Source: Anaerolineae bacterium
GTDB lineage: Bacteria; Chloroflexota; Anaerolineae; UBA4142
Assembly (NCBI GenBank): GCA_034435055.1
Contig: DAOTXS010000065.1
Span: 1 to 64,000, forward strand
DNA length: 64,000 nt
Direction: 5' to 3'
Positions 3,286 to 54,976 of this stretch are shown here, piece after piece. The translations under genes and the position numbers were made by a program. The stretch's first letter is position 1. The number at the start of each line of letters is the position of its first letter. The notes beneath the pieces are model-generated. The model ran no database searches. It worked only from the letters and a program-made list of their open reading frames with translations, and had not been told where the DNA came from.

Positions 3286-3726
3286 TTGGAGGACACCATG
3301 AGCATTTCACGTTGGGAACCATTCAAGGAAATGATGACTCTGCGCCAAGCGATGGATCGATTATTCGAAGATTCGTTCGTGCGACCCTATCGCGGTGCTG
3401 AGGGCACGTACCTGCCGCTCGACATTTACACGACGAATGACGCCGTGATTATCCGTGCCGCCGTGCCAGGTGTTGCGCCGGACGATGTCGAAGTAATGGT
3501 GGAAGGAAGCACGGTAACGATTCGCGGTGAGACCAAAGCGCCGCAGGTTGACGGCAACTTTTTACTGCAAGAACGCCGCTATGGACCTTTCGCCCGTTCC
3601 ATCGATCTGGCGATCCCGGTGCAGGCGGATAAAGCCGAAGCCAAGTTTGAGAATGGCGTCTTGGTGCTGTCAATTCCGAAAGCAGAAGAAGTCAAGCCCA
3701 AAGTCATCAAAGTCAAGAGCGCGTAA
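3286..3726 (+). CDS. Hsp20/alpha-crystallin family small heat shock protein (second tandem copy)
   Basis: Paralog of the upstream gene (WEPFKEM...GVLVLSIPK). The start may be the ATG at 3298. Confidence 0.9.
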   Translation: MEDTMSISRWEPFKEMMTLRQAMDRLFEDSFVRPYRGAEGTYLPLDIYTTNDAVIIRAAVPGVAPDDVEVMVEGSTVTIRGETKAPQVDGNFLLQERRYGPFARSIDLAIPVQADKAEAKFENGVLVLSIPKAEEVKPKVIKVKSA

Positions 3727-4457: not shown

Positions 4458-5636
4458 ATGAGAAAACTTTTATTGGTTGTCTTTGTCGCGCTGGCAATTT
4501 TCGTTGTAGCGTGCGCGGCGCCAACGCCAGAACCGACCAAAGCCCCGCCGCCCACGGTTGCACCGACAGCGGTTCCAACCAAACCACCTGAAGCAACCAA
4601 GCCACCCACGGTTGCACCGACGGCTGTGCCGCCAACTGCAACAAAACCACCTGCAACTACTGCACCGGCAAGTTCGGCTTCATCAGTCACCGCCGCACCT
4701 ACCGCGACGGTGCCCCCGGCTAAATGCGAAAAATTGCCCAATATGCCCACCGTCGCCGCGGGCGCGTTGGGTTCATCCACGAATCCAATCGTCATCACCT
4801 TTGTTCCGTCCGGCGACGTTCCAACAATCACCCGTGCCGGCACTGAAACTGCCGACTGTCTAGCCAAGATCACCGGCTTGTCGTACAAAATCGAAGTTGG
4901 CACCTCGTACGCCGTTTCAATCGAAGCAATGGGTGCCGGTAAAGCGCACGCCGGTTTCCTAGCGACCTTTGCGGCGATTCTCGCGCGTGAAAAGTACGGC
5001 ATCGAACCGGCGCTGGCTTCGATCCGTGCGTATACAACCAACGACCTCGATCCCGACAAAGCGCTCGCCGGTCAGATGACCGATTTTTACAAAGGTCAGT
5101 TCATCACCAAGAAAGGTTCCGGCATCAAGACGATTGCAGACTTGAAGGGTAAGACGTTTTGCGGTGCGGGCGCAACTTCCACCTCGGGCTGGATCATTCC
5201 AAGCATCAACTTGAAAGCGAACGGCATTGATCCAGATAAAGATTTAAAAAGTGTTACACAGGTAACGGGGTCTCACCCCGGTGTGGTCATCGCCGTGTAT
5301 AAAGGTGATTGCGATGCAGGCGCGACGTATGTGGATGCGCGAACGGATGCTTCTGTGTTGCGTACCTATCCCGATGTCAACAACGTGGTCGAACCATTCT
5401 TTGTCAGCATCCGCATTCCGAATGATGGTTTGCAATTCATCAAGGGCTTTGACCCGGCGCTCCGCAAAGCGACGATTGACGGCTTGCTCTCCATGATGGC
5501 TGATCCGGGCGGAAAAGCCGTGGTACGCCGCGCGTATTCGTACGATGCAATGAAAGAAGTACCCGCCACATATTACGACGAATTCCGCGACCTGTTGAAG
5601 AAAGCCGGCGTGGACGCGGCGTCGTTGGTTCGCTAA
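4458..5636 (+). CDS. phnD: Phosphonate/phosphite ABC transporter substrate-binding lipoprotein (PhnD family)
   Basis: Lipoprotein signal with VVAC lipobox and a Thr/Pro linker, followed by a PhnD-like periplasmic binding fold. GGAGGA RBS. Sits upstream of phnC and phnE. Confidence 0.75.
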   Translation: MRKLLLVVFVALAIFVVACAAPTPEPTKAPPPTVAPTAVPTKPPEATKPPTVAPTAVPPTATKPPATTAPASSASSVTAAPTATVPPAKCEKLPNMPTVAAGALGSSTNPIVITFVPSGDVPTITRAGTETADCLAKITGLSYKIEVGTSYAVSIEAMGAGKAHAGFLATFAAILAREKYGIEPALASIRAYTTNDLDPDKALAGQMTDFYKGQFITKKGSGIKTIADLKGKTFCGAGATSTSGWIIPSINLKANGIDPDKDLKSVTQVTGSHPGVVIAVYKGDCDAGATYVDARTDASVLRTYPDVNNVVEPFFVSIRIPNDGLQFIKGFDPALRKATIDGLLSMMADPGGKAVVRRAYSYDAMKEVPATYYDEFRDLLKKAGVDAASLVR

Positions 5637-5740
5637 CCCTGTTCGCGATGGGCAGTCGTTGTTCAATCAGAACCCTCGCGTGAATCAACCCGAAGGGTTG
5701 TTGGCTACCCAGCGACCCTTCGGGTCTCTTAAAGGACAAC

Positions 5741-6499
5741 ATGCTCAAAGTTGAGAATCTCACCAAAGTTTACCCCAATGGCACGGTCGCGCTCAAGGAT
5801 GTCAGTTTCCAAGTCAAGGATGGCGAATTTCTCGCTGTGATCGGTTTGAGCGGTTCAGGCAAGTCAACGTTGTTGCGTTGCATCAATCGCTTGATCGAAC
5901 CGACCGCCGGACGAATTTTGTGGAATGACGTTGAACTGACTGCGCTGTCGGCGGACGAGATGCGCAAAATGCGACGCCAGATGGGAATGGTGTTCCAGCA
6001 ATTCAATCTGGTCAAGCGTTCCTCGGTTATTACCAATGTCCTCTCCGGGCGTTTGGGTTATGTGTCTTCCTCTGCTAGTCTCATCAATTATTTTTCCCCT
6101 GCGGATCAAGAGCGCGCGCTCAACAACCTGGAGCGGATGGGTTTGCGCGACAAAGCGTACGTCCGCGCCGACTCACTTTCCGGCGGTCAACAACAACGCG
6201 TCGCGATTGCGCGCGCGTTGATGCAAGAGCCCAAACTGATGTTGGCGGACGAACCGGTCGCGTCGCTCGATCCGGTCTTGTCGCACTCGATCCTCAAATA
6301 TCTCGAACAACTGAACAAAGTGGACAAGATCACGGTCCTGTGCAGTCTGCATTTCTTGGACCTTGTTCATCGTTACGCCACCCAAGCCATCGCGCTAAAA
6401 GATGGACGCTTGGTGTTTCAAGGTCTGCCTCAACAAATCGACGACGCGCAGTTCAAAGCAATTTTTGGACAAGAAGCGGAACGCGTCACTATTCTCTGA
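5741..6499 (+). CDS. phnC: Phosphonate ABC transporter ATP-binding protein PhnC
   Basis: Walker A GLSGSGKST, ABC signature LSGGQQQR, Walker B and D-loop; PhnC-like overall. Confidence 0.85.
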   Translation: MLKVENLTKVYPNGTVALKDVSFQVKDGEFLAVIGLSGSGKSTLLRCINRLIEPTAGRILWNDVELTALSADEMRKMRRQMGMVFQQFNLVKRSSVITNVLSGRLGYVSSSASLINYFSPADQERALNNLERMGLRDKAYVRADSLSGGQQQRVAIARALMQEPKLMLADEPVASLDPVLSHSILKYLEQLNKVDKITVLCSLHFLDLVHRYATQAIALKDGRLVFQGLPQQIDDAQFKAIFGQEAERVTIL

Positions 6500-6537
6500 T
6501 TTTCGATTGAATCATCTAGTATCGCACAATCGAAAAC

Positions 6538-8526
6538 TTGAAACCTATGAATTCATCCTCTTCTCCCCTAAAGAATGTATCGCTTGCGACAATATTTTCC
6601 GCGCTCGTTCCCGGCGCGGGACAATTCTATCTGGACAAGCGCGGGCGCGGCGTCGGAATTTTTTCCGCGCTGGTGGTGCTTGCGTTTCTCATCCATTGGG
6701 CGCTCGATAATTTCAAGGTCGGTACGGTAACGGCCGGTGCGATAGTAACAAGCTGGCTCTACGTTCCGCTCGCGCTCTTTTGGTTGTGGAATGTGATAGA
6801 TGCTTACCGGCTTGGGCGGGGTGAACGTTCGCCCGCGTTAATTGCTTACCTGATGGCGGCGATCATTATCTATTCCATCGGTTGGCAAGTAACCGATGTT
6901 AATCTGGATCGCCTGGTCAATCGATTCCAAGATATTCAAGCCGTTTCGCGCGCGCTCTTCGCCCCCGACCTCTTTGCGCGCGATGAAAAAGGCAATTGGG
7001 GTCCCAGCGAAAATTTCGGCGAGATTATCGGCAAAATTGCCGACCGACCTGCGCCGGAATTTTTGGTAAACCTAGGCTTGTTTCGAAAAGAAGATGTTGT
7101 CCCCACGCCGATTCTCGGCAAGATGGCGGAAACGATTGCCATCGGTTTGATGGCAACACTCCTGTCAACGATCTTTGCACTCCCGCTCAGTTTTCTTGCC
7201 GCGCACAATATTATGGCGCGCCTTCCCGGCGGCACGCTGATCTATTACGTGATGCGCGCATTCTTGAACTTTGTTCGCTCGGTGGACACACTGATCTGGG
7301 CAGTCATTATGGTCGTGTGGGTGGGGCTGGGTTCATTTGCCGGCGTTCTCGCGCTGACGATTCACTCGATTGCCGCGTTGGGCAAATTGTATTCGGAAGA
7401 GATCGAGCATATTGACCCAGGTCCCATTGAAGCGATTACGGCAACTGGCGCGAATCTGCTCCAAGTTATTCGTTATGCGGTGATTCCGCAAATCATTCCG
7501 CCGTTTCTCGCCTTCACCTTGTTGCGTTGGGACATTAATATGCGGACGGCGACCGTTGTCGGTCTTGTTGCCGGCGGCGGCATCGGCTTTTTTGTAGTCG
7601 AGACGATTCAAAAAGGTGGCTATGAACAATACGCGGCGGCGTTGTGGGTCGTCGCTATCGTTATCATTCTGGTGGATTATATTAGCGCGCGGTGGCGCGA
7701 ACGAATTTTGATTGGCGACACCACTGTTGCCGTTGCTACACCCAAGCCATTCTATCGTTCGCCGCGCACGATGTTCTACATTTTGCTGGCGCTGGTATTG
7801 CTCGTTGCCAGTTATCAACTGTCCGGCATCGAGCCGCGCAAGATGTTTGAACCAGCACCCACCTTTGTCCGACTGGTAGGCGATTTCGTAACGATTGACC
7901 TGACGCCCGCGGTGTTGAACAACGTGATCAAGCAAATGCTGGTTACGTTGTTCCAAGCTTTGCTCGCGACGACGTTGGGTGGCATCGTCGCGATTCCGTT
8001 CAGTTTTCTTGCCGCGCGTAATTTGATGGGCGGCAATCTGCTCTCGCTCGTGATTTATTACGTAACGCGCGGCACGCTCAATGTCTTGCGTTCGATTGAG
8101 GCGTTACTCTACGTCTCCATCTTCCTGATCTGGGTTGGCGTGGGACCGTTTGCTGGAATGTTGGCGCTGGCGATCACCTCCTTCGCGCTGATCGGCAAAC
8201 TATTCTCGGAGGCAATCGAGAACATTGATCCAGGTCCGATGGAAGCCATCACAGCGACCGGGGCGACACCTTTGCAAACCATCGTCTATGCGATTTTGCC
8301 ACAAATCATTCCGCCGTTCGTCTCGTACTGGATTTATCAATGGGACATCAACGTGCGGATTTCGACGATTGTTGGTTTCGCCGGCGGCGGTGGCGTCGGT
8401 TTGTTGCTCAACAATTACTTTGGTGTTTTGCAATATCACAAAGCCGGCACCGTGGTTGCGATCATCGTGCTTGTCGTGACGATAATGGACTTTGCGAGCG
8501 CGAAGATTCGGGAAAAGATGGTGTAA
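6538..8526 (+). CDS. phnE: Phosphonate ABC transporter permease, fused duplicated PhnE, with an N-terminal TM2-like domain
   Basis: Two PhnE-type permease repeats, each carrying the EAA-like ...IDPGP(I/M)EAITATGA... loop. An N-terminal ~100 aa region has the PGAGQFYL...NVIDAYR motif. Confidence 0.8.
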   Translation: MKPMNSSSSPLKNVSLATIFSALVPGAGQFYLDKRGRGVGIFSALVVLAFLIHWALDNFKVGTVTAGAIVTSWLYVPLALFWLWNVIDAYRLGRGERSPALIAYLMAAIIIYSIGWQVTDVNLDRLVNRFQDIQAVSRALFAPDLFARDEKGNWGPSENFGEIIGKIADRPAPEFLVNLGLFRKEDVVPTPILGKMAETIAIGLMATLLSTIFALPLSFLAAHNIMARLPGGTLIYYVMRAFLNFVRSVDTLIWAVIMVVWVGLGSFAGVLALTIHSIAALGKLYSEEIEHIDPGPIEAITATGANLLQVIRYAVIPQIIPPFLAFTLLRWDINMRTATVVGLVAGGGIGFFVVETIQKGGYEQYAAALWVVAIVIILVDYISARWRERILIGDTTVAVATPKPFYRSPRTMFYILLALVLLVASYQLSGIEPRKMFEPAPTFVRLVGDFVTIDLTPAVLNNVIKQMLVTLFQALLATTLGGIVAIPFSFLAARNLMGGNLLSLVIYYVTRGTLNVLRSIEALLYVSIFLIWVGVGPFAGMLALAITSFALIGKLFSEAIENIDPGPMEAITATGATPLQTIVYAILPQIIPPFVSYWIYQWDINVRISTIVGFAGGGGVGLLLNNYFGVLQYHKAGTVVAIIVLVVTIMDFASAKIREKMV

Positions 8527-8546
8527 CGAGTTGTCATTTGGTGGCA

Positions 8547-8583
8547 GGGCATTCGTGTACGTTTGCGAATGCCCTTTTCTTTT
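8547..8583 (+). terminator. Rho-independent terminator after the phn operon
   Basis: GGGCATTCG...CGAATGCCC stem followed by TTTTCTTTT. Confidence 0.75.
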
Positions 8584-8773
8584 GGGGATTGGTTGGCAGT
8601 AAGAAAGTATTCGCTAACGGAATATCATGTATTTCTGGGACACGCAATTAAATTTTTTGCAATTCTTGTCTGATTGTGTTATAGTTATTGTGCAAACTTA
8701 TTCTTTGACCCGCGGGCTGCGGATATGAGTAACTGACTGATCGCTGATTCACTCTTTTCAATAGGAGAATACG

Positions 8774-10529: not shown

Positions 10530-11563
10530 ATGAGCATCATCAAAGATTGTCCCAATCGTGCCCAGTGCATTATTGATCTGTTATCGCGACGCGTTGAAGA
10601 AAGAAAAGGCGTTGCGTGGACCGCGCTTCTTTCCGAGGGTCAAAATCTTTGCAATGCCAGAAATGAAACGAGAGCTTTACAAAGTTTCGAACAGTCGCTC
10701 AAACTAAGTGATGATCTTGCCGCCGTGAATGACAAGGATGCTAATCGACTCAAGGCAACGGCGCTGACGTGTATTGGGGCTCTGGGTTTGTGTAAAAACG
10801 AAATCGGTAGCGCTATCGTACGTTTTCGTCAAAGCGCTAGTATTTTTAATGCCGATGGTGATCATTATGGTGAAGCCGTTGCTCTCTTTGCCCTAGCGCA
10901 AGCCTATGAGGCGCGGAAAGAGTGGCGCGAAGCGTTCCGAAATTACGAATGGAGTCAGCGCGCGCTATCACACATTAGCAGTGATTCTGCAACAATCTTT
11001 TTGCGCCAATTGGTCGAAAAGCACCACGGTGAAGCCATTAAGGAATGGGAAAAGATGCCCGAAGTCGTTCAAGCACCGCAGGGAACACTCGGCTTTCTTC
11101 CGATTTTCAACCGGATTCCGGCCGGCGACCCGCGTTCTATTTCTGAACAACCAACTGATTATGTAGAAACAGACCGTTTAATTATTGCCGACAAGCCGTA
11201 TTATGTCGTAAATAAAGATTCATCCCGGCTTCGTCTTACTTTCTCAATCGACAAAGCGTACATCGCTTTTCGTGTTGCTGGCGATAGTATGAATAATGCG
11301 GGAATTGACGACGGTGATTACGTAATTTTGAGAACGAATTCGGTGACAGGCTCCGAGCCGGTGCCAGAAATCGGTGATATTGTTGCGATTGTATTTCCGG
11401 ATGATAATGTTGTCACGCTTAAGCGATATCGCCGGAAAGGCACGCAAGTGGTTTTTGAACCCGATAGCACTAATCCCAGTCACAAGCCCTTTCAGTTTGA
11501 CAAAGCTAGCTCCGGTTTCCCTGGTAAGATTGTTGGAATTCATATAGCAACATTAAAGCCGCT

Positions 11564-15756: not shown

Positions 15757-15783
15757 TCGGATTTTGGGGTGATTCTCTCAAGT

Positions 15784-15865
15784 GTCATTGCGAGCGGAGC
15801 GAAGCAATCTTTCAAATGTCCTTTGTGAGATTGCTTCGTCGCTAAAAAACGCTCCTCGCAATGAC
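15784..15865. mobile_element. MITE-like nested-hairpin element, copy A (GTCATTGCGAGCGGAGCGAAGCAATC...AGATTGCTTCGTCGC...CGCTCCTCGCAATGAC)
   Basis: 82 bp with an outer stem GTCATTGCGAG/CTCGCAATGAC, an inner stem CGAAGCAATC/GATTGCTTCG and a variable loop. Almost identical to the copy at 27113-27191 and related to the one at 16411-16485. Confidence 0.75.
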
Positions 15866-15904
15866 AATTCTGATTTAATTGCAGATTTCGGATTTGTGTT
15901 TATA

Positions 15905-16405
15905 ATGCCAGCGATGGATAACCAAACAAAAGAACCTCTCGAAATCAGTGTCGGTCGCTTGTTGACCGAACAAAAGAAAACACTCGCGGTTGCCGAATCC
16001 TGCACCGGCGGCTTGATCACGCATCGCTTGACGAACGTGCCGGGGAGTTCGGCGTACGTCATCGTTTCCGTGATCGCGTACGCGTACCAAGCCAAGGTCG
16101 CGGCGTTGGGGGTGTCGTGGGACACGCTCAACAAATTCGGCGCGGTCAGCCCCGAAACTGTAACTGAAATGGCGCGCGGTGTCCGCGAACGATTTGCGGC
16201 GACGCTGGGTTTGGCGATTACCGGCATCGCGGGACCGGGCGGCGGGACGCCGGAAAAACCGGTTGGGCTGACATATATCGGACTGGCAACGCCGGCGCGC
16301 GTCATCGTCGAAAAATATATTTGGCAAGGCGACCGACGGCAAAACAAAGAGCAAAGCGCGGAAGCCGCGCTCAAAATGCTGTACGATTTTTTATCAAAAT
16401 CCTAA
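15905..16405 (+). CDS. CinA C-terminal domain protein (PncC-like nicotinamide-nucleotide amidohydrolase)
   Basis: LAVAESCTGGLI...GLTYIGLA is the CinA C-terminal domain signature. Start moved to the ATG at 15905. The tabulated ORF (15782) begins inside the MITE copy. Confidence 0.75.
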   Translation: MPAMDNQTKEPLEISVGRLLTEQKKTLAVAESCTGGLITHRLTNVPGSSAYVIVSVIAYAYQAKVAALGVSWDTLNKFGAVSPETVTEMARGVRERFAATLGLAITGIAGPGGGTPEKPVGLTYIGLATPARVIVEKYIWQGDRRQNKEQSAEAALKMLYDFLSKS

Positions 16406-16410
16406 GCGAT

Positions 16411-16485
16411 GTCATTTCGACGAGCGAAGGGAGGACGCGAAGCGTCTCACGTACTTGCTAGATTTCTCGCTTTGCTCGAAATGAC
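16411..16485. mobile_element. MITE-like hairpin element, diverged copy C (GTCATTTCGACGAGCGAAG...CTCGCTTTGCTCGAAATGAC)
   Basis: 75 bp sharing the GTCATT(G/T)CGA...TCG(C/A)AATGAC termini with copies A and B. Lies directly after the cinA-domain gene stop. Confidence 0.6.
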
Positions 16486-16517
16486 AGGTTGCAGGTAATT
16501 TTGAATATTCACAGGAG

Positions 16518-21839: not shown

Positions 21840-23414
21840 GTGAATTTGGAATCTGCATTGCTGACACAACCACGCCGGCTTGCGCGCGCGGCGGCGATTG
21901 TGATGCTGTTCTTCGTCGTCAGCCGATTGCTCGGTCTCGTGCGCGATATTGTCATCAGCCATCAATTCGGCACGTCGCGCGAACTCGATGCGTACTTTGC
22001 CGCGTTCAACATTCCCGATTTCGTGTTCACCGTGCTGGCTGGCGGCGCGCTTGGCTCGGCATTTATCCCAACGTTCTCGGCGATTCTGGCGCAAAACGAT
22101 GCCGCGCGCGCGTGGCGGTTGGCGAGCGCAGTAATCCAACTTACATTTTGGTTGCTCACGGTGCTTTGTGTCGTCTTGGCAATTTTCGCTTCGCCGATTG
22201 TTACGCTCACCGTCGCGCGTGGATTTGCGCCAACCGAACAACACCTCACCGCCGATTTGATGCGCTGGATGCTCGTTACCCCCATCATCTTTGGTGTGAG
22301 CGGCATCGTGATGGGCATTCTCAATTCGCATCAACATTTCGTTTTGCCCGCGCTCGCGCCGGTGATGTATAATGTGGCTATCATCGCCGGTGCGCTCTGG
22401 CTCGCGCCCACGATGGGGGTGTACGGATTGGTGGTGGGCGTTGTCACGGGCGCGGTGTTGCATTTGCTTGTTCAAATGCCGTGGTTCTTGCAAAAGCAAT
22501 TTCAAGTTTCAGGTTTCAAGTTTCAGACGTGGGATTTGAAATTTGAGATTTCGCAAGACGTTCATCACGTTGTGCGCTTGATGCTCCCGCGCACGTTCGG
22601 GATCGCGGCGGTGCAAATCAATTTTCTGGTCAATACCATTCTCGCTTCGACGTTGCCGGCAGGACGAATCGCCGCATTAGCGTACGCGTGGCGATTGATG
22701 TTGTTGCCGGTGGGTGTGGTGGGGCAATCGTTAGCAACCGCGGTCTTTCCAACTTTTTCAGCGCAGACCGCCCGCGATGAACGCGACGAATTTCGCAGTA
22801 CGCTTTCGATGGCGTTGCGCACAACGTTGTATCTGACGATGCCGGCGGCAGTCGGTTTGTTCGTGCTGGGCGCGCCGCTCGTCGCATTGCTCTTTCAGCG
22901 TGGCGAGTTTGACGCACAATCGACATCCGAAACTGCCTTCGCGTTGCAATTTTTTGCGCTGGCGTTATTCGCACATTCGAGTCTCGAAATTGTCACGCGC
23001 GCGTTTTACGCATTGCACGACACTTTGACGCCGGTAGCGATTGGCATCGGCGCGATGATTCTCAACATTGTGTTGAGTGTCATGTTGCTTGCGCCGCTCG
23101 CACACGGCGGGCTTGCGCTGGCAAACTCGATGGCGACGATTCTGGAATTGGTCATCTTGCTCGCAATTCTCCGCCGCCGACTTGGCGATATCGACGCGCG
23201 GCGCATCGCATTATCGACTGTGCGCATCAGCGTCGCGTCGATTGTGATGGGCGTAGTGATTGCGTGGTTGGCGCACGCGCTCGCGTCGTTCGGTGCAATC
23301 GTTGTGGCAATCGTCGGCGCGATGATCGGCGCGGTAATTTATTTTGTCGTAACGCTGTTGTTGCGTTCGGAAGAAATCACATTTGTGTTGCAGAGAATAA
23401 AACGTAGAACATAG
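21840..23414 (+). CDS. murJ: Lipid II flippase MurJ (MviN)
   Basis: 14-TM MOP-family protein with the N-terminal block [22 protein letters not shown]...AFNIPD. GTG start. Confidence 0.85.
22497..22553 (+). repeat. Heptamer tandem repeats inside the murJ coding sequence (TTTCAAG TTTCAGG TTTCAAG TTTCAGA ... GATTTGA AATTTGA GATTTCG)
   Basis: Read directly. They encode [19 protein letters not shown] in a predicted loop region. Confidence 0.75.
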
Positions 23415-26942: not shown

Positions 26943-28133
26943 ATGCTAATCGGAATCGATGCCAGCCGCGCGACGAGCGCGACACCCACCGGCACAGAAA
27001 CTTATTCACGCGAACTGATTCGCGCGCTCCTCGCGCTTGATCGCAAGAATCAGTATCGATTGTATTTGCAAAGCGATGCGCCGCGCGATTTTTTTGCACC
27101 TTTGCAGTCAATGTCATTGCGAGCGGAGCGAAGCAATCTCTCAAACAACTTGAAAGATTGCTTCGTCGCAAATGACGCTCCTCGCAATGACAAGCGTGAT
27201 AATTTTGAATTGCGAATTCTAAAGCTCCCCCGCCTTTGGACTCACCTTCGCCTCTCGTTTGAAATGCTCACACGCGCGCCGGATGTCTTGTGGGTTCCGG
27301 CGCACGTTCTGCCGCCCATTCATCCGCGCCGCTCGATTGTAACGGTGCACGACCTGGGATATTTGCATTTCCCGCGCGCGCATCCGCCGCTACAACGACT
27401 GTATCACACGTGGTCAACGCGGTGGAACGCGCGCGCCGCCGCGCACATCTTCGCCGATTCCGAGGCGACGCGCGATGACTTGATGCAATTGTTGAACGTG
27501 CCGCTGGAAAAAATTACCATTGTGTATCCGGCGTACGATGCGGAATTGTACAAACCGGTGCGCGATATTGCGCTAATCGAAAACGTGCGCGCGAAATATC
27601 GCGTAGGCGAAGACTATATCCTCAGCATCGGCACAATTCATCCGCGCAAAAACTATGCGCGGTTGATTGAGGCATTTAGCAAATTGCGAATGGCAAATTG
27701 CAAATTGATGATCGTTGGCAAACGCGGTTGGTGGTACCAAGAGACGTTTGACATTGTGCCGCGTTTGGGCTTAGAGTCGAAAGTACAGTTTCTCGATTAT
27801 GTCCCGGTTTCCGATTTGCCTGCGCTCATCAGCGGCGCGCGCTTGCTCGCGTTTCCCAGTTTGCACGAAGGATTTGGTTTGCCGGTGTTGGAAGCGCACG
27901 CGTGCGGTACGCCGGTTGTTTGCTCGATGGTGTCGTCGTTGCCGGAAGCCGCCGGCGATGCCGCGCTCTTTTTCGACCCGCTCGACGTTGACGCGATTGC
28001 CGGCGCGATGAATCGTGTCTTGACGGACGAGGCGTTGCGCGCAAAATTGATCGAGCGGGGTTTTGATAATCTCAAACGCTTTGCGTGGCAAGCCAGCGCG
28101 CGTCAAGTGCTGGATGTGATTCAAAAACTATGA
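26943..28133 (+). CDS. GT4 family glycosyltransferase carrying an in-frame ~79 bp repeat-element insertion
   Basis: GT4 fold with EX7E-type C-terminal motifs (FPSLHEGFGLPVLEAHACGTPVV). Residues SMSLRAERSNLSNNLKDCFVANDAPRN are encoded by the MITE copy at 27113-27191. Confidence 0.8.
   Translation: MLIGIDASRATSATPTGTETYSRELIRALLALDRKNQYRLYLQSDAPRDFFAPLQSMSLRAERSNLSNNLKDCFVANDAPRNDKRDNFELRILKLPRLWTHLRLSFEMLTRAPDVLWVPAHVLPPIHPRRSIVTVHDLGYLHFPRAHPPLQRLYHTWSTRWNARAAAHIFADSEATRDDLMQLLNVPLEKITIVYPAYDAELYKPVRDIALIENVRAKYRVGEDYILSIGTIHPRKNYARLIEAFSKLRMANCKLMIVGKRGWWYQETFDIVPRLGLESKVQFLDYVPVSDLPALISGARLLAFPSLHEGFGLPVLEAHACGTPVVCSMVSSLPEAAGDAALFFDPLDVDAIAGAMNRVLTDEALRAKLIERGFDNLKRFAWQASARQVLDVIQKL
27113..27191. 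mobile_element. MITE-like nested-hairpin element, copy B, inserted in-frame within the GT4 gene
   Basis: 79 bp. Shares the 26-nt 5' arm and both 3' stem arms with copy A (15784-15865) and differs in the loop and the AAATGA spacer. 79 is not a multiple of 3, yet the frame continues, which implies indel compensation. Confidence 0.75.
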
Positions 28134-42388: not shown

Positions 42389-42459
42389 TGGGGCGTGGTG
42401 CAGTGGTAGCACACCAGACTTTGGATCTGTGGACCGAGGTTCGAATCCTTGCGCCCCAG
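42389..42459 (+). tRNA. tRNA-Gln (anticodon UUG), CCA not encoded
   Basis: Cloverleaf folded by hand. Acceptor UGGGGCG/CGCCCCA with U1:A72 and a G73 discriminator, as in tRNA-Gln. D stem GUGC/GCAC. Anticodon loop CUUUGGA. T arm CGAGG-UUCGAAU-CCUUG. One non-canonical pair at the base of the anticodon stem. Confidence 0.7.
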
Positions 42460-52207: not shown

Positions 52208-54976
52208 ATGGCTGTCAAAAAAGTCGCCGTGAAGAAAGCGGCAACCAAAAAGACACCCCCGCAGAAATGGGTGTATTTGTTTTCAGAAGGCAATAAAGAC
52301 ATGCGCGATTTGCTTGGTGGCAAAGGCGCCGGTCTTGCCGAAATGACGAACGCGAAATTGCCCGTTCCCCCCGGCTTTACTATTACCACCGAAGCGTGCA
52401 ATACCTACACAGCGCTCGGTAAAAAGTTCCCGCCTAAAATGTGGGAACAAGTTCTCGCATCGATGAAAAAGGTCGAAGCGCAGACGGGCAAAAAGTTTGG
52501 TGATCCCAAAAATCCTTTGCTTGTCTCCGTTCGTTCGGGCGCCAAATTCTCGATGCCGGGCATGATGGACACGGTGCTCAATCTCGGCTTGAATGCCGAG
52601 ACGTTGAAAGGGATCGCCGCGTTGACTGGCAATGAACGTTTTGCATACGACGCGTACCGCCGCTTTATCCAAATGTTTGGGCGCATTGTGATGGGCGTTG
52701 AGGCGAAAAAGTGGGACGCGATCTTTGACGGTGTGAAGGAAAAATACCACGCCAAGCAAGACACCGACCTCGACACAAAAGCGCTGCAAGAGGTCGTTAA
52801 GCAATACAAAGAATTATACAAAAAAGAAATCGGCGAGGAATTTCCGGAAGACCCGTACAAACAACTCGAACTGGCGATTCAAGCGGTGTTCGGTTCGTGG
52901 ATGGGCAAACGTGCGGTCGATTATCGCCGCATCAACAAGATTCCGGACAATCTCGGCACGGCGGTCAACGTCTGTACGATGGTGTTCGGCAATCAAGGTG
53001 ATGATTCCGGCACTGGCGTCGCGTTCACGCGCGATCCCGGCACCGGCGAAAATGAATTGTTCGGCGAATATCTCGTCAACGCGCAAGGCGAGGATGTGGT
53101 TGCCGGGATTCGTACGCCGATGAAGATTGCGGAACTGAAAGACAAGAATCCCAGGGTTTATAATGAATTCCGCAAACTCGCGCGGCAAATGGAAAAGCAT
53201 TACCGCGAGATGCAAGATTTGGAATTCACGGTCGAGCGCGGCAAGTTGTGGATGTTGCAAACGCGCACCGGCAAGCGCACCGCGCGCGCGGCAGTTCGCA
53301 TCGCCGTGCAAATGGTGAACGAAAAACTGATCACCAAAGAAGAAGCGATTCAACGCGTCGAGCCGAATCACATCGTTCAATTGTTGATGCCGCAGTTCGA
53401 TTTCAAAGCGAAAGAAGACGCCGCCCAAGCCGGCAACTTGCTCGCCAAAGGTTTGAACGCCTCGCCGGGCGCGGCAACCGGGTTAGCGATTTTCGATCCG
53501 GACACCGCCGAAAAACTCGGCAAAGAAGGCAAAGCAGTCATTCTCGTTCGTTACGAGACGTCGCCGGAAGATGTGCACGGGATGTACGCCTCGAAAGGTA
53601 TCTTGACGCAACACGGCGGCGCGACTTCACACGCGGCAGTCGTCGCGCGCGGCGCGGGCCTCCCGTGCGTCGCCGGGTGCGAAACGATTCGCGTCGATGA
53701 AGAAAAGAAATTATTCACCGTCGGCGGCAAGACCGTCAAGGAAGGCGATTCGATTTCTATCGACGGTGGCACTGGTGAAGTGTTTGCCGGCGAAATCAAA
53801 ACCGTTCTGCCGGATTTCGATAAAGATACAGATTTGCAAACGCTCCTGGGTTGGGCGGATGAGATTCGCTTGAAGCAATCGCGCAAGGGAATCGCAAATT
53901 CGCCGGCGGTTGGTTTGCAAGTGTGGGCAAATGGCGATTATCCGCGCGACGCGCGAATGGCGCGCAAGTTCGGCGCGCAAGGCATCGGCTTGTGCCGTAC
54001 CGAGCATATGTTTTTTGAAACCGATCGCTTGCCTATCGTCCAAAAAATGATTTTGGCGAAGAGCGATGCCGAGCGCCAAAAATATCTCGATCAACTGTTG
54101 CCGATTCAACGCGAAGATTTCATCGGCATCTTGGAAGCGATGGAAGGATTGCCGGTCGTGATTCGCTTGATCGATCCGCCGCTCCACGAATTCTTGCCAT
54201 CGTACGAAGAGTTGTTGGTCAAGGTAACCGAGTTGCGGATTCGCGGGAACGACCCGGCAAAATTGAAAGAAACCGAAGAGATGTTGAAGACCGTCGCCGG
54301 AATGAAAGAGGCGAACCCGATGCTTGGGTTGCGCGGTTGTCGCTTGGGCATCACAATGCCACAGATCACGCAGATGCAAACGCGTGCGATTTTGGAGGCG
54401 GCGTGCATCCTCAAGAAACGCGGCGTCGATGTGCATCCGGAAATCATGATTCCGCTCGTGGGTCACGTGAACGAGTTGAAGCATCAACGCGAGGTGCTTG
54501 AGCCGGTTGCGAAAAAGGTGATGGAAGAACAAGGGGTCGAGGTCGAGTACAAATTCGGCACGATGATCGAAATTCCGCGCGGCGCAATTACGGCGGCGCA
54601 AATTGCCGAGTACGCGCAGTTCTTCTCCTTCGGCACGAACGACCTCACGCAAACTGCGATGGGGGTTAGCCGCGACGACGCAGAGAAGGCATTCTTGTTG
54701 AAATACGTGGAAGACAAGATTTTGCCGGCGAACCCATTCCAGGAACTTGACCGTGAAGGTGTGGGGATGTTGATGCGTTGGGCAGTCGAGCAGGGACGCA
54801 AGACTAAACCGGGACTGAAGATTGGTATCTGCGGTGAACACGGCGGCGATCCGTCGTCCATCGAATTCTGCCATGAGATCGGTCTGCACTATGTGAGTTG
54901 CTCGCCGTTCCGTGTGCCGGTGGCACGACTGGCGGCGGCGCAAGCGGCGCTCGCTAAAGTTGTGAAGGACAAATAG
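52208..54976 (+). CDS. ppdK: Pyruvate, phosphate dikinase
   Basis: Full-length PPDK (KWVYLFSEGNKDMRDLLGGKGAGLAEM; catalytic His region GGATSHAAVVARG; C-terminal PEP-utilising domain), with a Lys-rich N-terminal extension of about 19 aa. Confidence 0.9.
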   Translation: MAVKKVAVKKAATKKTPPQKWVYLFSEGNKDMRDLLGGKGAGLAEMTNAKLPVPPGFTITTEACNTYTALGKKFPPKMWEQVLASMKKVEAQTGKKFGDPKNPLLVSVRSGAKFSMPGMMDTVLNLGLNAETLKGIAALTGNERFAYDAYRRFIQMFGRIVMGVEAKKWDAIFDGVKEKYHAKQDTDLDTKALQEVVKQYKELYKKEIGEEFPEDPYKQLELAIQAVFGSWMGKRAVDYRRINKIPDNLGTAVNVCTMVFGNQGDDSGTGVAFTRDPGTGENELFGEYLVNAQGEDVVAGIRTPMKIAELKDKNPRVYNEFRKLARQMEKHYREMQDLEFTVERGKLWMLQTRTGKRTARAAVRIAVQMVNEKLITKEEAIQRVEPNHIVQLLMPQFDFKAKEDAAQAGNLLAKGLNASPGAATGLAIFDPDTAEKLGKEGKAVILVRYETSPEDVHGMYASKGILTQHGGATSHAAVVARGAGLPCVAGCETIRVDEEKKLFTVGGKTVKEGDSISIDGGTGEVFAGEIKTVLPDFDKDTDLQTLLGWADEIRLKQSRKGIANSPAVGLQVWANGDYPRDARMARKFGAQGIGLCRTEHMFFETDRLPIVQKMILAKSDAERQKYLDQLLPIQREDFIGILEAMEGLPVVIRLIDPPLHEFLPSYEELLVKVTELRIRGNDPAKLKETEEMLKTVAGMKEANPMLGLRGCRLGITMPQITQMQTRAILEAACILKKRGVDVHPEIMIPLVGHVNELKHQREVLEPVAKKVMEEQGVEVEYKFGTMIEIPRGAITAAQIAEYAQFFSFGTNDLTQTAMGVSRDDAEKAFLLKYVEDKILPANPFQELDREGVGMLMRWAVEQGRKTKPGLKIGICGEHGGDPSSIEFCHEIGLHYVSCSPFRVPVARLAAAQAALAKVVKDK

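Follow-up and report, generated by a model that had tools for sequence, protein, structure and literature searches.

A hairpin element within a glycosyltransferase gene

The window analysed here is a stretch of 64,000 nucleotides from an Anaerolineae bacterium (Chloroflexota; assembly GCA_034435055.1, contig DAOTXS010000065.1, positions 1 to 64,000 of the forward strand). It contains a gene for a GT4 glycosyltransferase whose open reading frame (ORF) runs through a short palindromic element (Table 1). Without its terminal tag bases this element is a nested hairpin of 79 nt (27113–27191), built as an inverted dimer of two tagged arms with a spacer of 17 nt between them. The two arms differ in length, the 3′ arm being the longer one, which makes the dimer a heterodimer. 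When folded as RNA the element forms a nested hairpin of −41.2 kcal/mol (z = −8.3), and a copy of it found between two other genes of the window (copy A) likewise forms a nested hairpin of −38.3 kcal/mol (z = −6.6). For the copy in the GT4 gene folding as DNA yields −26.3 kcal/mol, with a z-score of −7.4 against shuffled sequences.

Table 1. Positions of the repeat copies, their parts and the host gene in the window
Feature	Positions	Strand	Remarks
Host gene, GT4 (GT-B fold) glycosyltransferase, 396 aa	26943..28133	+	insert corresponds to residues 57–83
Whole inserted element with tag bases	27112..27192	+	T-GTCATTGCGAG...CTCGCAATGAC-A; 81 nt, 27 codons' worth
5′ arm of the element in the GT4 gene	27112..27138	+	tag TGTC, ATTGC, GAGCGGAGCGAA, GCAAT, C
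Spacer of the element in the GT4 gene	27139..27155	+	TCTCAAACAACTTGAAA; self-complementary ends lengthen the inner stem
3′ arm of the element in the GT4 gene, inverted	27156..27192	+	GATTGCTTCG, TCGCAAATGACGCTC, CTCGCAATGAC, A; encodes ...DAPRND
Copy A, intergenic dimer, same subfamily	15783..15866	+	between divergent clpB-like and cinA-like genes
Copy C, degenerate dimer, sister subfamily	16410..16486 (core 16411–16485)	+	GTCATTTCGA...CTCGAAATGAC, inner GATTTCTC

The reading frame of the host gene is free of stop codons throughout the element and reads ...SMSLRAERSNLSNNLKDCFVANDAPRNDKRDNFELRILKLPRLW, in agreement with the initial annotation of this DNA, which had placed the element within an uninterrupted GT4 frame. 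The encoded protein matches the Pfam families Glycos_transf_1 (3e-34) and Glyco_transf_4 (9e-12), retains the conserved C-terminal E-x7-E region with the invariant residues E309 and E317, and is included in all of the 63 invariant columns listed for the alignment. With its full length of 396 residues the gene is intact, and the frameshift that had been named as a sign of a pseudogene was not found in it. An AlphaFold2 model of the protein, built on 59 orthologs, reached a mean predicted local distance difference test score (pLDDT) of 89.4 and a predicted template modelling score of 0.87, and a Foldseek search with this model returned MshA, WaaG and BshA. The pLDDT falls below 50 only at residues 57–83, that is in the insert, which is located between the strand 37–42 (with the helix 48–51) and the strand 88–92 of the N-terminal Rossmann-like domain. 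The position in a loop that had been expected for the insert is thus what the model gives, and the insert is predicted to be a disordered loop of the enzyme.

Comparison with orthologous glycosyltransferases

In order to compare the loop among orthologs we used the 120 best GT4 homologs and took the conserved blocks DFF and NFEIRxxPFPRLW as the borders of the loop. The hairpin insert is missing in 114 of these 120 orthologs, as the initial annotation had anticipated for such an alignment. The loop comprises 2–10 residues in most of the insert-free orthologs (a few have longer unrelated sequence), which confirms that the element lengthens a normally short N-terminal loop. The gene order Sua5/TsaC, GT4, S8 peptidase is kept among the orthologs. 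The nearest relatives of every carrier of the insert (74–82% identity) are without it, and the carriers are scattered among insert-free relatives. The closest ortholog with an empty site (L128) is 81% identical outside the loop and reads DFFAPDVSRIPHHELRVIPFPRLW there. In addition, an independent assembly (GCA_964553815.1, L121) contains a GT4 allele of 97% identity which carries the identical element.

Six other GT4 orthologs carry a dimer in the same loop and none elsewhere in the protein. One of them (P0001) has the same insert-bearing allele as the window. In P0102, P0083 and P0080 the insert follows directly after the DFF..P block and is read in the VIAS...KQSP...LLAMT frame, and in P0028 and P0027 the loop contains dimers of a sister subfamily with ATTTC motifs, in orientations opposite to each other. 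Insertion point, reading frame, orientation and subfamily thus vary among the carriers, and at least three independent insertions into this loop have taken place, probably four or five.

The same loop contains tandem heptanucleotide repeats in many orthologs, for example, CGAAATC repeated four times at about positions 190–225 of L122, and further ones in P0022, P0031 and P0041. They are read as ELRIANYELR, SRITNYELR, LQSPISNLQ and the like. These repeats are a second source of length variation at the loop and are unrelated to the hairpin repeat. Because heptamer expansions are found there too, a uniquely tolerant loop is sufficient to explain why insertions recur at this place; a target preference for the loop may be an additional cause. 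A segment 'VIANAERPV' in the same region of P0061 was rejected as a copy, as no repeat arm is found there at the DNA level.

The two insert-bearing alleles of the window and of L121 have a ratio of nonsynonymous to synonymous substitution rates (dN/dS) of 0.54, a value that with only 24 differences is too poorly founded to be informative. Ten of these 24 differences crowd into 17 nt (27069–27085 in the window, 259–275 in L121) about 27 nt upstream of the insert, where the window reads QSDAPR and L121 reads RENVAR. The L121 version looks ancestral. No template for a template switch at this cluster was found nearby.

Further copies of the element in the window

The 26-nt 5′ arm GTCATTGCGAGCGGAGCGAAGCAATC is found exactly twice in the window, at position 27113 in the GT4 gene and at position 15784 at the beginning of the core of copy A (15784–15865), and had no match in 100 shuffles even when up to three mismatches were allowed. 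Both copies are alignable end to end with a mean column identity of 89%, flanks included. The 5′ arm is identical, the outer and the inner 3′ stem arms match, and the differences are confined to the spacer and an extra 3′ segment. The alignment thus upholds the earlier observation that the 79-bp element is a copy of the intergenic repeat with the 5′ arm and both 3′ stem arms in common. Read from the GTG at position 15782, copy A would encode MSLRAERSNLSN... as an N-terminal extension of the cinA-like ORF. As the CinA domain begins at the methionine codon at 15905, this extension is spurious, and so it had been described before.

The initial annotation did not mention copy C. This dimer is degenerate and belongs to the sister subfamily, in which ATTTC/GAAAT replaces ATTGC/GCAAT at all four motifs. 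It is situated 6 nt past the stop codon of the cinA-like gene and upstream of uppP/bacA, was detected by nhmmer with E = 0.003 and folds as DNA with −18.8 kcal/mol (z = −3.6). Copy A and the copy in the GT4 gene belong to the ATTGCGAG subfamily. Two weak nhmmer matches at about 23104–23167 and 52565–52635 were judged not to be copies.

Distribution and organization of the repeat family

Searches for the family used the pattern GTCATTGCGAG-N40-70-CTCGCAATGAC, which specifies only the two terminal 11-mers. Among the matches listed for a species-level genome collection the hosts belong to the Alpha-, Gamma- and Deltaproteobacteria, Bacteroidota, Chloroflexota, Patescibacteria, Planctomycetota and Cyanobacteria, and the listed matches of the same pattern also include viral contigs from IMG/VR. 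Plasmids of the plasmid collection contain the repeat in three records only, which is not enough to compare filled with empty sites. The inner blocks GAAGCAATC and GATTGCTTC are conserved across the family though they lie outside the search pattern. Other parts vary: the spacer differs in sequence and in length (about 10–35 nt between the inner stem blocks), and a segment within each arm is variable and is often swapped for a small GC-rich hairpin. In 80 oriented copies the base preceding the 11-mer pair is a pyrimidine in 76 cases (50 C, 26 T) and the base following it a purine in 77 cases (59 G, 18 A). The true ends of the element are therefore YGTC...GACR, and all three copies of the window have T-GTC...GAC-A.

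Of 124 copies, 114 lack a direct-repeat flank. A target duplication was not seen around the copies, and pairing past the tag pair is barely above the shuffled-flank control. The family occurs as single arms, as dimers and as tandem arrays of arms, an organization which is typical of repetitive extragenic palindromic (REP) sequences. In two viral contigs of low GC content tandem single 5′ arms stand ahead of a complete dimer (L244, positions 692–893, 3350–3580 and 5503–5672; L167, positions 6429–6600 and 8521–8750); these arrays have a period of 41 nt with a linker of 11 nt and 3–4 repeats, and L167 encodes phage structural and packaging proteins. The arrays show that the arm is an independent unit able to be amplified. 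Five loci rich in repeats turned out to be ordinary genomes of phages; they have genes for portal, capsid, terminase and baseplate proteins, and no transposase was found in them. A longer element with the same ends, which could represent an autonomous form, was not seen in the repeat loci examined. In the phage contigs L180 and L161 (e.g., L180, positions 10722–10986) the repeats are enclosed by further inverted C-rich/G-rich sequences (ccccctt...aagggg), with partial arms directly beside complete ones in a stack. This arrangement could represent nested insertions or longer local variants.

Our full-text search of the literature yielded no description of the ATTGCGAG subfamily, of its arm sequences or of the encoded peptides. 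Pfam and NCBIfam contain no family for the repeat-encoded peptides, and a peptide search of the protein database gave a single weak match. Rfam, applied to the window and to 18 repeat-bearing loci, has no repeat family that reaches its gathering score there; weak matches to miRNA-type hairpins appeared by E-value only.

In-frame copies in other genes

The arms of the repeat are free of stop codons in five of their six frames. For the whole element about half of 256 distinct copies are open in any one frame, compared to 34–39% of the shuffled sequences, and 103 of the 256 copies reach the maximum of four open frames. A search for in-frame insertions in other genes had been proposed, and besides the six GT4 orthologs it revealed copies in uvrA (L041), in guaA (L035), where the match of the GATase domain spans the insert, in the portal gene of a phage (L238, positions 941–1015; Pfam SPP1_portal, 3.4e-20), where the copy adds VIASVAKQSQGIATSPRFIGAPRND, and in the gene of an unnamed protein (L090). 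The intragenic copies seen are all free of stops and keep the frame. In-frame copies are thus a general property of the repeat family.

Association with Ssn-type nucleases

In Neisseria the small nuclease SsnA, which consists of a single GIY-YIG domain, binds the repeat NTS (CGTCATTCCCGCGMAVGCGGGAATCYRG) in its single-stranded form and cuts the DNA next to it (Chenal et al. 2025, Nat Commun 16:2388; PMC11893778). NTS consists of CGTC, ATTCCCGC, a loop, GCGGGAAT and a C; cutting by SsnA depends on the three bases ahead of the palindrome, and binding on the C that directly follows it. Across phyla ssn genes are bracketed by Ssn-related motifs (SRM), and NTS repeats cluster around particular genes and lower transformation in an SsnA-dependent manner (PMC11893778).

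Homologs of Ssn were sought by tblastn with an Ssn-like sequence, at first in the plasmid collection, which includes chromosome-sized records, and then, with the proteins found there, in all fetched loci with ATTGCGAG repeats. In Spirosoma, Planktothrix and Azospirillum dimers of the same build, whose stems are lineage-specific, flank the Ssn-like genes, and in N. gonorrhoeae the Ssn-like gene is flanked by NTS repeats of this build. In a plasmid of Planktothrix agardhii (L250, about 900–1130) the Ssn-like GIY-YIG gene and its flanking repeats are located between a gene of an MmeI-type restriction-modification enzyme and drmA, the DISARM helicase gene, that is in a neighbourhood of defence genes. 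The fetched ATTGCGAG loci gave one match to the Ssn proteins, L239. Its ORF of 98 residues belongs to the Pfam family PF01541 (GIY-YIG, 9.5e-15) and encodes a protein which is 45% identical to the NTS-flanked SsnA ortholog of N. gonorrhoeae (E = 1e-28) and 100% identical to a protein of Flavobacterium beibuense. This ORF is bracketed by elements of the ATTGCGAG type, a dimer and a single arm on one side and two dimers on the other side.

Relatives of the L239 protein (55–78% identity) were next retrieved together with their surroundings from 80 metagenomic loci. The exact 11-mer GTCATTGCGAG is present within 350 nt of the gene in 59 of the 80 loci, where about 0.0005 occurrences per such region are expected by chance. 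With one mismatch allowed, arms are found on both sides of the gene in 53 and on at least one side in 71 of the loci, with the nearest arms typically 8–120 nt away. As this clustering is far above chance, the family of the repeat in the GT4 gene has a clade of Ssn-type nucleases as its cognate gene. A first search with a regular expression for GIY-YIG proteins had found nothing, and the link emerged only with tblastn and real Ssn-like proteins; scans of viral contigs for an arm together with 'YVYI' produced chance matches only and were discarded.

Relation to known repeat families

The CGTC-tagged REP superfamily (Di Nocera, De Gregorio, Rocco 2013, BMC Genomics 14:522; PMC3733652) includes dRS3 of Neisseria and the Rickettsia palindromic elements (RPE) RPE-4 and RPE-6. 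Its unit has an unpaired terminal tag CGTC (TGTC and CCTC are allowed), a stem of 8–9 bp opening with A-T, a loop of 4–5 nt and a short unpaired tail past the stem with the consensus CCA. These REPs are found mainly as inverted dimers with spacers of 20–100 nt, are often heterodimers, and fold per arm or as one hairpin. They are mostly intergenic, and their intragenic in-frame dimers encode 20–30 residues, often in uvrA/B/C; no transposase gene was found beside them (PMC3733652). The repeat described here agrees with this picture in its tag, both in the copies of the window and in the family (C or T at −1, G or A at +1), in its tail, which after GCAAT reads CCAG in Alphaproteobacteria and CTC or CTT in the window as well as in many other phyla, with the first C conserved, and in its inverted dimers with the tags outermost, unequal arms and a spacer of 17 nt in the GT4 copy. 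It also shares the in-frame copies, with 26–27 residues in the GT4 gene of the window and further cases in six GT4 orthologs, uvrA, guaA and the phage portal gene. Nevertheless, there are differences. The five phyla listed for the superfamily do not comprise Chloroflexi, Patescibacteria, Planctomycetes and Cyanobacteria, in all four of which, and in phages, the ATTGCGAG subfamily is present, and its peptides (VIAS..KQS.., ..LAMT) are absent from the published table of intragenic copies (PMC3733652).

With NTS and the SRM the arms have in common the layout YGTC, AT-stem, loop, stem and C; the GTC before the palindrome and the C after it are found in each of the two arms of the GT4 copy and of copy A, and across the family. 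Also in common is the flanked nuclease: the repeats stand on either side of a GIY-YIG gene with a single domain and about 95 aa in L239 and in 53 of the 80 related loci, though not in the window. For repeats of the SRM type hundreds of dispersed copies in some genomes have been reported, and there is no report of in-frame copies in genes in that study (PMC11893778).

The likeness to the in-frame insertions of Rickettsia, which the initial annotation had pointed out, is well founded: RPE-4 and RPE-6 belong to the CGTC superfamily (PMC3733652). Both kinds of repeats are palindromic and lie in frame in unrelated housekeeping genes, and RPEs are translated as extra peptides compatible with the fold (PMC10969869, PMC3733652). 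Dimers of R. conorii encode ...SFLRKQES...SRFRRND, which follows the same frame logic as SLRAERSN...APRND here. In contrast, the Rickettsia stem is ATTCC... and not ATTGC, elements of the RPE-1 type are about 150 bp long and do not belong to the tagged REPs, and RPEs are confined to Rickettsia, whereas the ATTGCGAG subfamily crosses phyla. With the GTAG REPs and REPINs, which are mobilized by RAYT proteins (Y1 transposases similar to those of IS200/IS605), the repeat shares short palindromic units, inverted doublets with long hairpins, clusters, the lack of target duplication, a single cognate gene flanked by repeats and a presumed mechanism via single-stranded DNA hairpins. However, the tag is YGTC instead of GTAG, and the flanked gene encodes a GIY-YIG nuclease instead of an HUH/Y1 transposase. 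Moreover, REP families are usually lineage-specific, whereas the ATTGCGAG sequence is nearly the same across phyla. Bacterial MITEs (miniature transposable elements with inverted repeats) such as Correia, Nezha and ERIC (PMC10969869) are likewise small, non-coding and dispersed, have inverted-repeat ends and occasionally lie in frame in genes. Unlike MITEs, the repeat has neither a target-site duplication nor a parent insertion sequence (IS) with matching ends, and its arms act as independent units.

Origin and fate of the insert

We suggest, with a probability of roughly 75%, that the element in the GT4 gene consists of two inverted units of a REP-like hairpin repeat with the tag [C/T]GTC, that it was inserted in frame and is a tolerated passenger, and that its family is linked to Ssn-type nucleases. 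The closest described relatives of the element are the CGTC-tagged REPs and the SRM, that is NTS/dRS3 of Neisseria and RPE-4 and RPE-6 of Rickettsia. In this course of events two YGTC arms in opposite orientation with a short spacer form a long hairpin, and a copy of it entered the loop that joins strand 2 to strand 3 in the Rossmann-like N-terminal domain, with no duplication of the target. The gene stayed open because the arms are free of stops in five of six frames and because the inserted length is divisible by three. Translation then most likely gives an enzyme with about 27 additional, disordered residues. This stretch would be a harmless passenger and not a functional module of the enzyme. 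The copies may spread through a single-stranded hairpin intermediate which is handled by an Ssn-type nuclease or by another enzyme, phages may ferry the repeat between hosts, and the source genome presumably encodes an Ssn-type nuclease.

Several observations weigh against this interpretation. The single arms have a stem of only 5 bp (ATTGC/GCAAT) around a variable core of 12–22 nt and thus, apart from the AT start, do not follow the published rule for stem and loop; they fold with −2.7 to −3.7 kcal/mol, which is no better than shuffled sequences, compared to −9.0 kcal/mol for NTS. The published search pattern for SRM, HGTCWYN(0-2)YYVSBRHN(0-5)WNVSBRGN(0-2)RNCYNB (PMC11893778), matches NTS, yet it matches no arm of the window, no consensus of the family and no other place in the window, as a G stands where a Y is required. 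Since neither the stem and loop rule nor this pattern applies, the ATTGCGAG subfamily is a variant of the CGTC-REP/SRM kind and not a plain member. The 64-kb window contains no Ssn-like gene that could be detected by tblastn. An all-versus-all BLASTP of the ORFs within 1.5 kb of 124 dispersed copies revealed no enriched protein family, transposases included; an enzyme acting in trans would leave no such enrichment, so this outcome is accounted for but gives no positive support either. For SsnA, cleavage and the effect on transformation have been shown, not transposition of the repeats (PMC11893778). Finally, the core lengths of the inserts in the GT4 genes (79, 80, 86, 101, 75 and 81 nt) are not all divisible by three, and since even the nearest ortholog with an empty site has an identity of only about 81% outside the loop, the exact boundaries of the insertion cannot be fixed.

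Other explanations have to be weighed against the insertion of a REP-like passenger. The element had been called MITE-like, and terminal inverted repeats of 11–13 bp together with its small size, its dispersal and the lack of own coding capacity would fit a deletion derivative of an IS with a DDE transposase. Yet the large majority of the copies has no direct-repeat flank, transposases are neither enriched near the copies nor found in the five repeat-dense phage loci, arms also occur singly and in arrays with the 41-nt period, and the genes bracketed by the family are those of GIY-YIG nucleases and not of transposases. In addition, the target duplication that had been read from DAPRD and DAPRN on the two sides of the insert dissolves on inspection: DAPRN derives from the 3′ arm of the element itself (GACGCTCCTCGCAATGAC) and is partly common to copy A, and DAPRD belongs to the substitution patch specific to the window, as the L121 allele with the same insert reads RENVARDFF upstream instead of QSDAPRDFF and P0001 has the same insert but no DAPRD upstream of it. 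Thus, a classical MITE is very improbable and the name misleading in its transposon sense. The opposite idea, that nothing was inserted at all and that the segment is ancestral protein sequence or resembles copy A by convergence, can draw on the variable length of the loop among orthologs, several of which have other extra sequence, but it has practically no chance of being correct. The insert is missing in 114 of the 120 orthologs including the nearest relatives of each carrier, its DNA matches intergenic copies in the window and in unrelated phyla with a 5′ arm identical to that of copy A, and the carriers are unlike one another in insertion point, frame, orientation and subfamily.

If the insertion is accepted, it might have inactivated the gene. 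A dN/dS of 0.54, the cluster of ten substitutions 27 nt upstream of the insert and an mRNA hairpin of −41 kcal/mol, which could hinder translation, would be in line with a young pseudogene. We consider this, and likewise an assembly artefact, to be highly unlikely, as the ORF is intact at 396 aa, the protein is present in all 63 listed invariant columns, the model has high confidence before and after the insert, and an independent assembly contains the same allele. Intact ORFs with such an insert are also present in five further diverged orthologs and, in other phyla, in uvrA and guaA, which argues that such inserts persist under selection. It is also unlikely, if to a slightly lesser degree, that the element acts at the level of nucleic acids, either as an Ssn site which limits recombination near a cell-envelope gene or as an mRNA hairpin which tunes translation or stability or is bypassed. 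The clustering of NTS near particular genes and the SsnA-dependent drop in transformation (PMC11893778) as well as the finding that REPs are mostly transcribed and stand at the 3′ ends of genes (PMC3733652) would agree with such a role, and so would the repeated hits in the same GT4 loop. On the other hand, the intragenic copies are all stop-free and in frame, which is needed only if they are translated, the unrelated heptamer expansions in this loop let tolerance explain the recurrence, and no Ssn gene is known for the source genome, with none found in the window.

The initial annotation had not recognized that the window has a third copy, that the family extends over many phyla and into phages, that it is linked to Ssn and that it was repeatedly inserted into the same loop of orthologs. 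In-frame palindromic repeats have hitherto been treated mainly as a curiosity of Rickettsia; here one subfamily does likewise in Chloroflexota, Gammaproteobacteria and phage. A class of repeats which in 2013 had no partner enzyme is now tied to Ssn single-stranded DNA nucleases for a subfamily that the published patterns missed, and nuclease and repeat together make a concrete pair for tests of mobility. As the repeats create spurious ORFs, N-terminal extensions such as that of the cinA-like gene and odd protein segments, annotators should be able to recognize them. A much bolder idea, to which we give some room though the odds are clearly against it, is that the ATTGCGAG repeat is a single active phage-borne hairpin element which is spread across phyla by its own Ssn-type clade and donates loops of about 27 residues. 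The Ssn-type nucleases would then be the long-missing mobilizing enzymes of the CGTC-type REPs, and since the arms are open in almost every frame, ready-made loops would be donated to proteins in a general and sequence-defined way well beyond Rickettsia, with preferred landing sites such as the GT4 loop.

Other features of the window

The sole Rfam match of the window (65.3 bits) is a tRNA gene at positions 42389–42459.

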